Sequence record: OL362041.1
Length of the DNA: 64,000 bases
Source of the DNA: Escherichia phage vB_Eco_OMNI12
Strand: one strand, 5' to 3'
The notes below the pieces were generated by a model. The model ran no database searches. It was given only the letters and a program-made list of their open reading frames with translations, and was not told where the DNA came from. Below, one piece after another: positions 27,195 to 31,167 of the stretch (position 1 is the first letter of the stretch; each line of letters starts with the position of its first letter). Made by a program: the position numbers and the translations under genes.

Positions 27195-27776
27195 CTAACC
27201 GAGCTTTTTAGTTAATTCATTCCAATGTTTTCTACACAAAGAAACATAAATTTCATCACCAATACAGATTTGATTACCTTCTTTAACTGGTGTTCCATCT
27301 TCCATTAATCGAGCTGTCATAATAGCTTTTTTACCACAATGACAAACTGCCTTTAGTTCAATAAGTTTATCTGCAATCGCCAAAAGTTCTTTAGAACCTT
27401 CAAATAATTTTCCAGCGAAATCAGTCCTTAGCCCATAAGCCATAACAGGAACATTATATGTATCAACAATTCGACTTAATTGATGCACCTGTTCAGTTTT
27501 TAAAAACTGAGCTTCATCTACAAATACACAATGAATATCTTTTTGTGCTTCAGCCCATTTATAGAACTCAAAAATATCCATATCATCCGTAATAATATTC
27601 GCTTCCTGCTTAATTCCAATGCGAGAAACGACTTCACAGACAGAATCGCGAGTATCAATAGCAGGCTTAAGAACTAATACACCCATTCCGCGTTCTTTAT
27701 AATTATGTGCAGCAGTCAAAAGAGAAGCAGATTTTCCAGCATTCATTGCTGCGTAAGTAAAAATTAAACTCGCCAT
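27195..27776 (-). CDS. tk: thymidine kinase
   Basis: 193 aa; P-loop AMNAGKS, Zn-ribbon CHCGKKA...CRKH. Confidence 0.9.
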   Translation of the reverse strand: MASLIFTYAAMNAGKSASLLTAAHNYKERGMGVLVLKPAIDTRDSVCEVVSRIGIKQEANIITDDMDIFEFYKWAEAQKDIHCVFVDEAQFLKTEQVHQLSRIVDTYNVPVMAYGLRTDFAGKLFEGSKELLAIADKLIELKAVCHCGKKAIMTARLMEDGTPVKEGNQICIGDEIYVSLCRKHWNELTKKLG

Positions 27777-27785
27777 ATCACCTTC

Positions 27786-27971
27786 TTAAAGCATATTCAC
27801 ATAAGCTATTAATTCGTTTTCTTTCTTATCAAACCGATCAGCAAATTCTTCTTGCTGTTCGGGAGATAGCGGGCCGTATTCATCATAAAAGGTGTTTGCT
27901 TCTGTATGCTCATCTAGAAGTTCATGGATAAGCTCAAACAATTTATCTTTTTGTTCTTTACTCAGACTCAT
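27786..27971 (-). CDS. hypothetical protein
   Basis: ORF track 61 aa. Confidence 0.45.
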   Translation of the reverse strand: MSLSKEQKDKLFELIHELLDEHTEANTFYDEYGPLSPEQQEEFADRFDKKENELIAYVNML

Positions 27972-28141
27972 ATATTAATTTCCAGGAGTTTTAAAATAAT
28001 TCGCTTTTGCTTAAATATTTCCATAGTTAAATGACCAGTATCTTTTTGACCGATTCCAATGGCAAAACCTTTATTGACAGCGAGTTCAATTAAATTATCA
28101 AGCTCACGTAACACTTCATACTGTAACTCAAAACTATTCAT
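27968..28141 (-). CDS. small ORF (57 aa), not in ORF track
   Basis: Hand-translated MNSFELQYEVLRELDN...; ATGA start/stop overlaps with both neighbours. Confidence 0.4.
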   Translation of the reverse strand: MNSFELQYEVLRELDNLIELAVNKGFAIGIGQKDTGHLTMEIFKQKRIILKLLEINI

Positions 28142-28365
28142 TTCGGTTTACCTTCTTTAACGAAATCAGGATAAGGATAAAATCCTGAATAAAATCCTTC
28201 ACCTTTATGATTGATGCATCCTTTATTAGAACAATAGCACCAATAATCGAAATCACAAGCCATTTCATCATTACATAAAGCAAAAACAACTGGCCATTCA
28301 CACTTTTCACAATGGGCATTTTTAAGAATACTAGTTTGGCTCATAACCATGTAACCTTTAAACAA
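28138..28365 (-). CDS. cysteine-rich small protein
   Basis: 75 aa; 10 Cys (CEKCEW...CNDEMACDFDYWCYCSNKGC). Confidence 0.5.
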   Translation of the reverse strand: MFKGYMVMSQTSILKNAHCEKCEWPVVFALCNDEMACDFDYWCYCSNKGCINHKGEGFYSGFYPYPDFVKEGKPK

Positions 28366-28553
28366 TATTCTTCTACATGTTGTTTACGACCTTTCCTATC
28401 AATAAAGGTATATTCAACGAATGTTCCAATATAGTCTTTATCTACATCATGTGGACTATTAATTGGGCATTTAGTACGGCAAATGCGTTCCCATTGACGA
28501 ATAATTTCCACTTTGTTTTTAGGATCAAACGGATGCGGGTAATGTACTTTCAT
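28341..28553 (-). CDS. hypothetical protein
   Basis: ORF track 70 aa. Confidence 0.45.
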   Translation of the reverse strand: MKVHYPHPFDPKNKVEIIRQWERICRTKCPINSPHDVDKDYIGTFVEYTFIDRKGRKQHVEEYCLKVTWL

Positions 28554-29004
28554 AATCCACCACTATTAAATCAATATCAGGAGTAAACATGTCGATTAAT
28601 TTAGAAACCTTATCCCAATCGCCGCCAGCAATACCGCAACCTATGCGTGGAATGTAAATTACTGGTTTAAACAAAAGGGTTTCTGCCTGTAGATTTAATT
28701 CTATCATGCAGTTTACTAAAGCACCATAATCAAGATTAGGACCCGGTTCGTATTGTGTATACAGGTTATAGCATATACCAAATCCCGTAGGGCTATGTTT
28801 AAAAACAATAGACATATCGCCTAATTTATCACGAGAACCGTACTCGGTAGTGGTTTTATCTATTTCTAAAATTTTGGGATAGGCTCTTGCTAATTGACCC
28901 GCTACGCCAGAGCCCATTGTGTGGAAGCAATTGCACCCGTGCGCAATAATATTACCTTGAAGAAATAGGGCGACAATATCGCCCTTGATATATTTTACAA
29001 TCAT
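28525..29004 (-). CDS. macro-domain protein (putative ADP-ribose binding/hydrolase)
   Basis: 159 aa; GDIVALF..GNIIAHGCNC..GSGVAGQL and IGCGIAGGDW match macro-domain signature motifs. Confidence 0.6.
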   Translation of the reverse strand: MIVKYIKGDIVALFLQGNIIAHGCNCFHTMGSGVAGQLARAYPKILEIDKTTTEYGSRDKLGDMSIVFKHSPTGFGICYNLYTQYEPGPNLDYGALVNCMIELNLQAETLLFKPVIYIPRIGCGIAGGDWDKVSKLIDMFTPDIDLIVVDYESTLPASV

Positions 29005-29342
29005 CTAGTACTCAATCCTCGATTATAAGAATCTACTAAACGGTCAACCATTGAATGACAAGCGGCTTTATCTTTCTCCTCCGCAACTGAACATTCTAAG
29101 GTATTCCACTTTTTAGCATATCGTTTTAACAATGTATCATTTTTGTATCTGCTTGATTTATCTCTTTCTCCGTCTTTATATGCATATATTAATTTCTGCG
29201 CAAATTCAGCTTGGCATGCTTTATTTTTCCCGCAATAATCCGCTGCAGTACGGTTTACATACTCTCTAATTTCAGTATATGATGTATCTGCTAACACAGA
29301 AAATGAAATTAATCCTATACATAAAACCAAAATTTTAGTCAT
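29001..29342 (-). CDS. secreted Cys-containing protein
   Basis: 113 aa; signal peptide MTKILVLCIGLISFSVLA. Confidence 0.5.
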   Translation of the reverse strand: MTKILVLCIGLISFSVLADTSYTEIREYVNRTAADYCGKNKACQAEFAQKLIYAYKDGERDKSSRYKNDTLLKRYAKKWNTLECSVAEEKDKAACHSMVDRLVDSYNRGLSTR

Positions 29343-29880
29343 TTACTATTTCCAAAAGTTTATTATTTTTAAGGTAATTAGCCTTTTCTAGGACTTCAGA
29401 AGCATATTTAGAACCTGCTTTAACATTCCATCCCGAATTATAAGATGATATTGCTTTTCTTATATCACCCTTATGTATATTTAACCAATAAGAAAGTTCA
29501 ATGTACGCCCAGGAAGCTGAATTGGACCGTTTATTCAACATTCTTTTTATTTCAGCATCGGTCATATTATAACCAAGTTCCTTGACTCTCGCTCGCATAG
29601 TAGGCAAATAATTTTGGAACATTCCATAAGCGTGATGCTTTGGTTTAGATTTTAAATTAACTCCGCCAGAGCTTTCTTGCCATAAAATAGCAGCCATTAT
29701 ATGACCTAATCCGCTCTTGTGGATATTTTTGTGTGTTTTATATTTTCCATCCTTAGAAAATTGTTCCCCGAATTGATACGCGTAACGCATGTTATCGAGT
29801 TGGACATTACTGAAAGTATGCTCGGAGCTATGTGCCATCATTGAAATGGCCAATAGACCAGCGAGTAGTGCTTTTCTCAT
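29335..29880 (-). CDS. secreted lytic-transglycosylase-like protein
   Basis: 181 aa; signal peptide; ILWQESSGG...GMFQ...SYNSG pattern resembles SLT domain. Confidence 0.5.
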   Translation of the reverse strand: MRKALLAGLLAISMMAHSSEHTFSNVQLDNMRYAYQFGEQFSKDGKYKTHKNIHKSGLGHIMAAILWQESSGGVNLKSKPKHHAYGMFQNYLPTMRARVKELGYNMTDAEIKRMLNKRSNSASWAYIELSYWLNIHKGDIRKAISSYNSGWNVKAGSKYASEVLEKANYLKNNKLLEIVND

Positions 29881-29887
29881 GCTTACC

Positions 29888-30349
29888 TCATTGAGTTTTA
29901 ATTACTGCTTTAGAAGCCTTTCCTGGTAAACGACGACTATTGATAATTGCCATCCTGCATTGAAGCGACGGGTCTTTGAACTTCGCATTAGGTTTACAAA
30001 CTGTAAATCCAAGCCAAAGATTTCCATCTGTGATTTCTAAACGTCCAGGACGGTATTCAACCCCATCAATAAAATCCTCATCAATGTCAGGACGCGGAGG
30101 CATACTCAGGAATTCATTAACTTCTAAAACATGGTCTTTTATTTTGTGGAATAATTCAAAAACATATGTCTCATCAATCTCCCGTTGAATTGCACGATCA
30201 AGAAGATGCTGAGAATATTTTAGATGAAACGATGAGACCCCTGCTGCTTTTGATGCCTCACGAATCTCATTGTTAATTTGACGAAACTCCGACTCAAAGT
30301 GACGACGAAGCTTATTTCGACGGATAAAAACTTCTGTATTGATAGTCAT
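29888..30349 (-). CDS. regB: endoribonuclease RegB
   Basis: 153 aa; MTINTEVFIRRN N-terminus; same length as T4 RegB (identification from memory). Confidence 0.65.
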   Translation of the reverse strand: MTINTEVFIRRNKLRRHFESEFRQINNEIREASKAAGVSSFHLKYSQHLLDRAIQREIDETYVFELFHKIKDHVLEVNEFLSMPPRPDIDEDFIDGVEYRPGRLEITDGNLWLGFTVCKPNAKFKDPSLQCRMAIINSRRLPGKASKAVIKTQ

Positions 30350-30729: not shown

Positions 30730-30989
30730 ATACTAGCTTCTTTGAGTTTCGTTTTAGCAATAGCTAACTGATCGAGGCTTTCAGCATAATTCTTCGCGAG
30801 TTCAAAGTCTTCGCAATTATCTAGTGCTTCCCAGAATTCATCATATAAAGCATCAAAGATAAGTCCTAAACGAACTTCAGCGTCTTTAATAGCATTTACT
30901 TTACCGATTTTTTCGTCGGTATGTGGCTTATAACCTTTAATATCTTCAATCATATTTGACTTCCTCACCAGTACATAAATCGTATTCAA
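30687..30989 (-). CDS. hypothetical protein
   Basis: ORF track 100 aa. Confidence 0.4.
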
Positions 30990-31167
30990 CTAAACGAATA
31001 GGTTCATGAATGCCATATCCCTGAACAGAAATTTCTGTCGTAGGATAAATTCCACTAATATCACCCATATTCCACGCTTCATTAAATTGCTGTTCGCCTG
31101 AATTACTAAACCATTCTGCGAAAGCATTTAACACATCTTTAGAACCTTCAATAATTATCTTTGCCAT
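30946..31167 (-). CDS. hypothetical protein
   Basis: ORF track 73 aa. Confidence 0.4.
   Translation of the reverse strand: MAKIIIEGSKDVLNAFAEWFSNSGEQQFNEAWNMGDISGIYPTTEISVQGYGIHEPIRLVEYDLCTGEEVKYD

Follow-up and report, generated by a model that had tools for sequence, protein, structure and literature searches.

The 64,000 nucleotides of Escherichia phage vB_Eco_OMNI12 (OL362041.1) analysed here, hereafter called the window, contain a small open reading frame for a macro-domain protein, and the question raised by this locus is what such a protein would do for the phage. An earlier note on this DNA had assigned the frame to a tk-regB block and had proposed that its product reverses or intercepts ADP-ribose marks. 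The boundaries given in that note were exact, and the ORF, for which no strand had been given, starts with ATG on the minus strand and encodes 159 amino acids (Table 1). The source genome belongs to Tequatrovirus, and its nearest relatives across 24 kb, e.g., Yersinia phage fPS-90, are ~97% identical. On the minus strand, tk, three small ORFs, tk.3, tk.4, vs, vs.1, and regB follow one another in the T4 gene order, and the placement in a tk-regB block was thus correct. The T4 gene at the equivalent position, namely between vs and tk.3, is tk.4, annotated as “phosphatase; contains A1pp phosphatase motif”; by synteny, therefore, the window ORF is the counterpart of T4 tk.4.

Table 1. Positions of tk.4, its sequence features, and the neighbouring genes in the window
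Feature	Position	Strand	Details
tk	27195-27776	-	
Three small ORFs between tk and tk.3		-	
tk.3	28341-28553	-	
tk.4 / adfM CDS	28525..29004	-	159 aa, one single macro domain
Overlap of the tk.4 3' end with the tk.3 start	28525..28553	-	29 nt (ORF coordinates, T4 annotation, alignment)
Segment diverging from T4	28525..28966	-	codon-by-codon comparison
Residues 119-130, PRIGCGIAGGDW	28615..28650	-	second glycine-rich (phosphate-binding) loop
Residues 80-84, NLYTQ	28753..28767	-	end of strand 74-82; Q84 at the position of the catalytic Lys
Residues 17-38, GNIIAHGCNCFHTMGSGVAGQL	28891..28956	-	HGCNC motif (H22, N25) and first glycine-rich diphosphate-binding loop MGSGVA
Perfect 8-bp hairpin AGGGCGATATTGTCGCCCT	28967..28985	-	codons 7-13; terminator-like scan
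Translation start region of tk.4	29001..29020	-	read directly from the sequence
vs	29001-29342	-	
vs.1	29335-29880	-	
regB	29888-30349	-	

The ATG codon of tk.4 (29004-29002) overlaps the TGA stop codon of vs (29003-29001) as ATGA, which suggests translational coupling within one transcript, and the sequence upstream of the start contains GAGGA at 29020-29016 (12-16 nt upstream) as well as GAG at 29013-29011. A dedicated promoter for tk.4 was considered and rejected, because the sequence scan found no convincing sigma-70 or MotA-box promoter directly upstream of the gene and because T4 does not share a MotA-like box that is located within it; tk.4 hence probably belongs to a longer transcript, with its translation coupled to that of vs. 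The internal box, TGCTTTA-N12-TAGAAT at 28698-28723 on the minus strand, could drive the downstream tk.3-tk genes but is probably a chance match, since T4 has CGCTTTA at the equivalent place. Also, we noticed that MotA-like patterns are enriched across the whole window (21 found versus 8.3 expected).

The product of tk.4 was matched by Pfam Macro (PF01661) with E=1.3e-7 and 32 bits, above the gathering score of 22, over the profile positions 2-117 of 118, and by PHROG 335 with E=1.2e-71. Furthermore, 794 homologues were obtained at E<=1e-3 in a large protein collection, and tblastn retrieved related sequences from 2789 of the 50,697 phage records, the majority of them from large myoviruses of Escherichia, Klebsiella, Salmonella, Pseudomonas, Vibrio, and Acinetobacter. 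The homology is far past chance, so the reading frame is not a fortuitous one. When the structure was predicted with AlphaFold2 by using 76 homologues, a macro fold was obtained with pLDDT of 94.3 and pTM of 0.89, and the macro-domain call of the earlier note is thus borne out by both the Pfam match and the predicted fold. Residues 1-155 were modelled confidently, with the macro domain spanning 1-152 and a disordered tail at 156-159; the predicted fold is a three-layer alpha/beta macro fold, in which two glycine-rich loops would line the ADP-ribose cleft.

In the structure comparison, the model scored highest with BT1257 of Bacteroides thetaiotaomicron (18.3; PDB 2afc, also 2fg1), a structural neighbour without known function, followed by the macro domain of M. 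tuberculosis DarG (17.6), yeast Poa1p (17.3), and human TARG1 and Thermosipho DarTG (16.6 each), while the values of all other macro domains were 13.7 or less. The Foldseek results agree with this picture, the top match being human TARG1/C6orf130 (PDB 4j5r; E=5.9e-10, TM 0.72-0.83). As far as the model can tell, therefore, the protein is structurally nearer to the TARG1/DarG/SCO6735/Poa1p-type (ALC1-like) class than to the MacroD, PARG, and viral Mac1 types. Poa1p (PDB 6lfq and related entries) has been described as an ADP-ribose-1''-phosphate phosphatase, and its similarity to the window protein is one of sequence and fold only; nothing here argues for that activity. The closest structural relatives are hydrolases of nucleic-acid or protein ADP-ribose and not signal receptors, which bears on the earlier suggestion that defence signals derived from ADP-ribose (Thoeris) are intercepted; for this, the phage protein would have to hydrolyse the signals or act as a sponge for them. 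Nothing that we found supports this suggestion, the literature searched provides no genetic or biochemical link to Thoeris-type signals, and we regard it as extremely unlikely.

The sole matches of the window protein in NCBIfam and PADLOC were DarG, the antitoxin of DarTG2, and these matches were confined to the macro part; namely, positions 2-142 of 338 in NF048014, with 27.7 bits versus the cut-off of 250, and positions 3-144 of 329 in the PADLOC profile. DarG (PDB 5m3i, 5m31, and 7omu) has the catalytic Lys80 (in T. aquaticus) where the window protein has Gln84, carries a C-terminal DarT-binding domain and is about 330-340 residues long as compared with 159 here, and is encoded beside darT, whereas the window gene is located between vs and tk.3. 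With no Lys, no C-terminal domain, and no darT neighbour, the window protein is not a DarG antitoxin.

DarTG stops phages by ADP-ribosylating phage DNA, and T-even phages are equipped with layered countermeasures: AdfA, which binds DarT1; AdfN, a NADAR protein that acts against DarTG1; and Tk.4/AdfM, which acts against DarTG2. T4 30.3/AdfN was reported to counter DarTG1, and T4 without adfA and adfN was still resistant to DarTG2, so that another factor was to be expected and was indeed predicted (Johannesman et al. 2025). The HIDEN-SEQ transposon screen singled out tk.4, the one gene of T4 to be depleted on a DarTG2 host, and a clean knockout of tk.4 sensitised T4 to DarTG2; the gene was hence renamed adfM for “anti-DarT factor Macrodomain” in this preprint, in which the removal of ADP-ribose from DNA by T4 Tk.4 was proposed but not demonstrated (bioRxiv 10.1101/2025.11.20.689424). 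The idea that a phage macro domain reverses the marks of DarTG thus matches what the screen and the knockout revealed for the T4 orthologue, and would apply to the window allele by homology; the plating of a deletion mutant on a DarTG host, which had been proposed as an experiment, had already been realised for T4 in that work. The same study found vs to be the most strongly depleted T4 gene in minimal medium (bioRxiv 10.1101/2025.11.20.689424), and the two adjacent genes therefore have separate conditional phenotypes. The macro/A1pp nature of tk.4 has also been noted since the 2000s, both in the T4 genome annotation and in comparative papers (Nolan et al. 2006). The finding at this locus is accordingly already known and explained for T4 tk.4/adfM, and the residual novelty is modest: a Gln-type classification of the active site and an allelic replacement, both of which are described below.

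We consider it quite probable that tk.4 encodes a stand-alone macro-domain ADP-ribosylglycohydrolase, an orphan antitoxin stripping the ADP-ribose added by DarT2 from phage DNA, and probably with a chemistry like that of Streptomyces coelicolor SCO6735. Host DarT2 would ADP-ribosylate single-stranded phage DNA at the thymidines of TNTC motifs and thereby block replication; the phage enzyme would then bind the ADP-ribose in the cleft between both glycine-rich loops and hydrolyse the ribose-thymine bond, by which replicable DNA would be restored. The active site would be of the SCO6735 type, in which the distal ribose is oriented by Q84, itself held by N25, for a hydrolysis mediated by water, and the Lys-based chemistry of DarG and TARG1 would be absent. 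The gene itself is one of a tightly packed series of early-region genes, and its translation would be coupled to that of vs. We infer that Tk.4 of the T4 type acts enzymatically on DNA, and the window allele would have the same activity as T4 Tk.4 despite the identity of 58% between the two proteins. What speaks against our explanation is this low identity to the tested T4 protein, together with the missing DNA-contacting lysines of SCO6735 and the acidity of the window protein (pI about 5.0); the evidence for T4 tk.4, moreover, comes from a preprint.

The residues expected for such an enzyme are strongly conserved. Both motifs quoted in the earlier note are present in the translation, QGNIIAHGCNCFHTMGSGVAGQL as residues 16-38 and RIGCGIAGGDW as residues 120-130. 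When 200 relatives (121 from phages and metagenomes and 79 from bacteria) were aligned, H22, G23, N25, C26, G33, A35, D49, N80, Y82, Q84, P119, G122, G124, and W130 were invariant or nearly so; namely, H22, G23, N25, C26, G33, and A35 were invariant in the first motif, and P119, G122, G124, and W130 were nearly invariant in the second. The bacterial loci were retrieved with patterns including HGCNC and GxGIAGGxW, and the conservation of both motifs in bacteria is therefore partly circular; N80, Y82, and Q84, which lie outside the retrieval patterns, are nonetheless invariant in all of the 200 relatives. In a codon-by-codon comparison with T4, furthermore, codons 21-30 have eight silent changes and no amino-acid change, which points to purifying selection on the active site.

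In the profile alignment and also in MAFFT, Q84 aligns with K84 and A126 with D125 of TARG1, and the catalytic dyad K84/D125 of TARG1 is thus Q84/A126 in the window protein; the loop PRIGCG is common to both proteins, and TARG1 removes thymidine-linked ADP-ribose, as is proposed for the window protein. SCO6735 (PDB 5e3b) likewise lacks both catalytic residues, with Gln85 taking the place of K80 in DarG and of K84 in TARG1; its Q85A mutant is inactive and its N27S mutant nearly dead. On DNA, SCO6735 cleaves ADP-ribose linked to thymidine, and it shields Streptomyces from DarT (PMC9411070). The window protein resembles SCO6735 in being a stand-alone macro domain with no adjoining darT, in the Gln in place of the catalytic Lys, in the conserved Asn (N25 being the counterpart of N27 by motif position), and in the loop PRIGCGLAGGTW, while the overall sequence similarity is modest (E=8.5e-8 with a single sequence and 1e-15 with a profile). 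The second loop, PRIGCGIAGGDW, is the family consensus and aligns with PRIGCGLAGGTW of SCO6735, PRIGCGLAGGKW of BT1257, and PRIGCGLDRLQW of TARG1; direct alignment places it against the SCO6735 loop as PRIGCG[IL]AGGxW (G126 and G128 in SCO6735). In the PDB sequence search with C-terminal fragments, solely this PRIGCG loop and not the Gln85 region was aligned to SCO6735 (5e3b), and it is the alignment with TARG1, together with the structural comparison published for SCO6735, from which the equivalence of the Gln with the catalytic Lys is taken. Q84 would take the role of SCO6735 Q85. SCO6735 differs from the phage protein in that it is encoded by a DNA-damage-inducible bacterial gene and in its DNA-contacting K34 and K89, which have no counterpart here; by motif offset, an approximate correspondence, K34 is S32 in the window protein and Ala in most relatives, and K89 falls at the Gly-Pro of positions 88-89. 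As no Lys is available for mutation, the catalytically dead controls of choice would be Q84A or N25A.

A different way to counter DarT2 would be stoichiometric inhibition by binding, with hydrolysis being secondary. SCO6735 with the inactivating Q85A mutation continued to inhibit DarT in vitro, and did so more strongly than the mutants of DarG and TARG1 (PMC9411070), and AdfA sets a precedent for a phage factor that acts by binding DarT1. The window protein, however, has none of the C-terminal DarT-binding domain of DarG, as expected from its length and the extent of the profile match, and purifying selection acts strongly on each residue of the active site; also, the catalytic Asn of PhiKZ AdfM is required for its full activity (PMC13309987). 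Binding as the main mode of action thus appears highly improbable to us, and hydrolysis of the ADP-ribose on DNA is the reading that we retain.

Yet another role is implied by “phosphatase” and “O-acetyl-ADP-ribose deacetylase” as labels in databases, namely metabolic clean-up of small soluble derivatives by a Poa1p-like ADP-ribose-1''-phosphate phosphatase or a deacetylase, but both labels were taken over from the name of the domain (A1pp). While TARG1-type enzymes do have phosphatase and deacetylase side activities, these are not their main role, and we know of no Tpt1/KptA step in T4 that would produce Appr-1''-p. Since the sole reported phenotype of T4 tk.4 is, moreover, specific to DarTG2, clean-up of this kind is in our judgement very unlikely.

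The substrate might also be ADP-ribose on protein or RNA instead of DNA. Candidates are uracil-linked ADP-ribose on RNA, marks left by other host toxins, and, as the earlier note had suggested, those that the phage itself makes with Alt, ModA, and ModB. SCO6735 and TARG1 do act on Glu-linked ADP-ribose in proteins and on uracil-linked ADP-ribose in RNA as well, and the strong divergence of the window allele from T4 leaves room for a shift in specificity. Alt, ModA, and ModB, however, modify arginine, and to our knowledge macro domains of the class of the window protein do not cleave arginine-linked ADP-ribose; nothing found in this study supports the undoing of these marks. CmdTAC, which ADP-ribosylates mRNA, is reported to defend robustly against T-even phages, and Tk.4 hence evidently does not neutralise it. 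The genetic evidence points to DarTG2, a DNA modifier, so that a protein or RNA substrate in place of DNA is very unlikely, and de-ADP-ribosylation of phage DNA remains our preferred explanation.

The name AdfM was given independently to gp104 of phage PhiKZ, which removes DarT2-made ADP-ribose from DNA in vitro and of which the N23A mutant is impaired (Cell Rep 2026, PMC13309987). Like the window protein, gp104 is a stand-alone phage macro domain countering DarTG2, and its catalytic N23 aligns with N25 in MAFFT. Unlike the window protein, it has the DarG-type motif FPTKDNW and the second loop PPLGCANGGLDF, shares only ~23% identity, and is imported into the phage nucleus, with its DNA de-ADP-ribosylation having been shown in vitro (PMC13309987). 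Alignments of gp104 by hhalign and MAFFT put its PTK motif two columns off the TQ of the window protein, and, given this shift and the low confidence, they were set aside for the placement of the catalytic residue. Across the whole Tk.4 clade, then, an invariant Gln appears to occupy the place of the catalytic Lys of DarG and TARG1, a feature that appears to be new; we read the Tk.4 clade as Gln-type (SCO6735-like) and PhiKZ AdfM as Lys-type, a distinction that we did not find in the text of the two AdfM papers. PhiKZ gp104 is probably a separate lineage with a shared name. The predicted SCO6735-like, not DarG-like, chemistry would also bear on the design of inhibitors.

In terms of the allele, the window gene is far from that of T4. 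The two proteins were compared over 155 residues without internal gaps, and the nucleotide identity over the whole gene is 62%, whereas the flanks are nearly those of T4 (Tk 99%, Tk.3 91%, Vs 96.5%, Vs.1 100%, and RegB 99%). Locus, length (similar), and fold class are common to both proteins, as are H22, N25, N80, Y82, Q84, G122, G124, and W130, but the second loop is RIGAGIGKGNW in T4 (L002:5923-6390) in place of RIGCGIAGGDW, the window protein has four additional C-terminal residues, and the overlap with tk.3 is 29 nt in the window versus 4 nt in T4. The first ~38 nt of tk.4 are identical or nearly identical to T4, and vs is 98.7% identical over the 150 nt next to it; indeed, the identity to T4 is complete up to the 3' end of the hairpin AGGGCGATATTGTCGCCCT and then collapses, so that the hairpin delimits the divergent segment on its left side. 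The hairpin itself is conserved in T4 and may be incidental. From these comparisons, tk.4 of the window is a deep allelic replacement within T4-like flanks, an observation that appears to be new; the allele is old, its active site is kept by purifying selection, and recombination has placed it into a T4-like backbone.

This allele is by no means confined to the window. The gene is 99.8% identical in nucleotides to the copies in Sf21, OE5505, and the BASEL phages Paracelsus and WilhelmHis, and window-type alleles (at least 90% identical) were found in 312 phage records, as compared with 224 records for the T4 type; T4 is matched at 80-90% identity in another 159 records, and further classes share ~75% identity with the window protein. 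Several classes of tk.4 alleles thus coexist in T4-like phages. The second loop of T4 is atypical among the 121 phage and metagenome relatives, where Lys at the position of G127 occurs in three and Gly at that of A126 in eleven. While the anti-DarTG2 phenotype is known from the T4 allele only, therefore, the tested allele is the atypical one in the second loop, and the window allele has the consensus form and occurs in sequenced phages no less often. Recognition of the adfM locus would explain part of the host range of the phages carrying it and matters for the choice of therapeutic phages on DarTG2-positive strains. The allelic replacement may reflect selection for different specificities, e.g., for DarT2 variants or for uracil-linked ADP-ribose on RNA, a good substrate of SCO6735. 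That both propositions hold together, namely that the Gln-type lineage is separate from the Lys-type DarG and from PhiKZ “AdfM” and that the alleles diverged by selection on specificity, is conceivable but somewhat doubtful; if true, two unrelated phage solutions, mechanistically and evolutionarily separate, carry one name, AdfM.

Bacterial relatives of the window protein, 35-44% identical, occur in Rhodobacteraceae, Verrucomicrobia, Desulfobacteraceae, and other groups. Within 5 kb of 80 bacterial relatives, no homologue of DarT2 was found by tblastn with the single sequence of P. aeruginosa DarT2, a search of limited sensitivity in which nothing scored below E=0.8. A Pfam scan of 20 neighbouring genes, with crude ORF calling in GC-rich contigs, gave housekeeping or unrelated functions (rpoC, a class I tRNA synthetase, lspA, PALP, and GNAT) along with one NADAR, one Fic, and one second Macro domain. 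An origin of the Tk.4 clade from a toxin-antitoxin pair was rejected on these grounds; with no DarT2 within 5 kb and with unrelated neighbours, the clade would consist of stand-alone enzymes like SCO6735 and not of detached antitoxins.

Three of these neighbourhoods deserve mention in their own right. In Ruegeria sp., a NADAR-domain gene (L023:4463-4993) is located 8 nt upstream of the macro relative (L023:5001-5459) on the same strand, a pair that would join the guanine- and thymine-specific kinds of DNA ADP-ribose-removing enzymes in one operon. In a Bacteroidales MAG, the relative (L081:5001-5441) is followed by an overlapping second Macro-domain gene (L081:5426-5968), and in a Saprospiraceae MAG (L064:3991-5004), a Fic-family gene precedes the macro relative.

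Also around tk.4 in the window, other small differences from T4 were noticed. Compared with T4, the block between tk and tk.3, 27786-28365 on the minus strand, is a mosaic: the T4 sequence nearest to ORF 27786-27971 (L002 5535-5717, corresponding to T4 tk.2) shares only 54% identity with it, and ORFs 27968-28141 and 28138-28365, the latter Cys-rich and 68-75 aa long, have no match in the tk region of T4. On the other side of the locus, the T4 match of ORF 30946-31167 (minus strand, 73 aa) is in two pieces, namely vs.5 and the vs.4-vs.5 spacer, which suggests a different start or a small indel as compared with the 58-aa vs.5 of T4.
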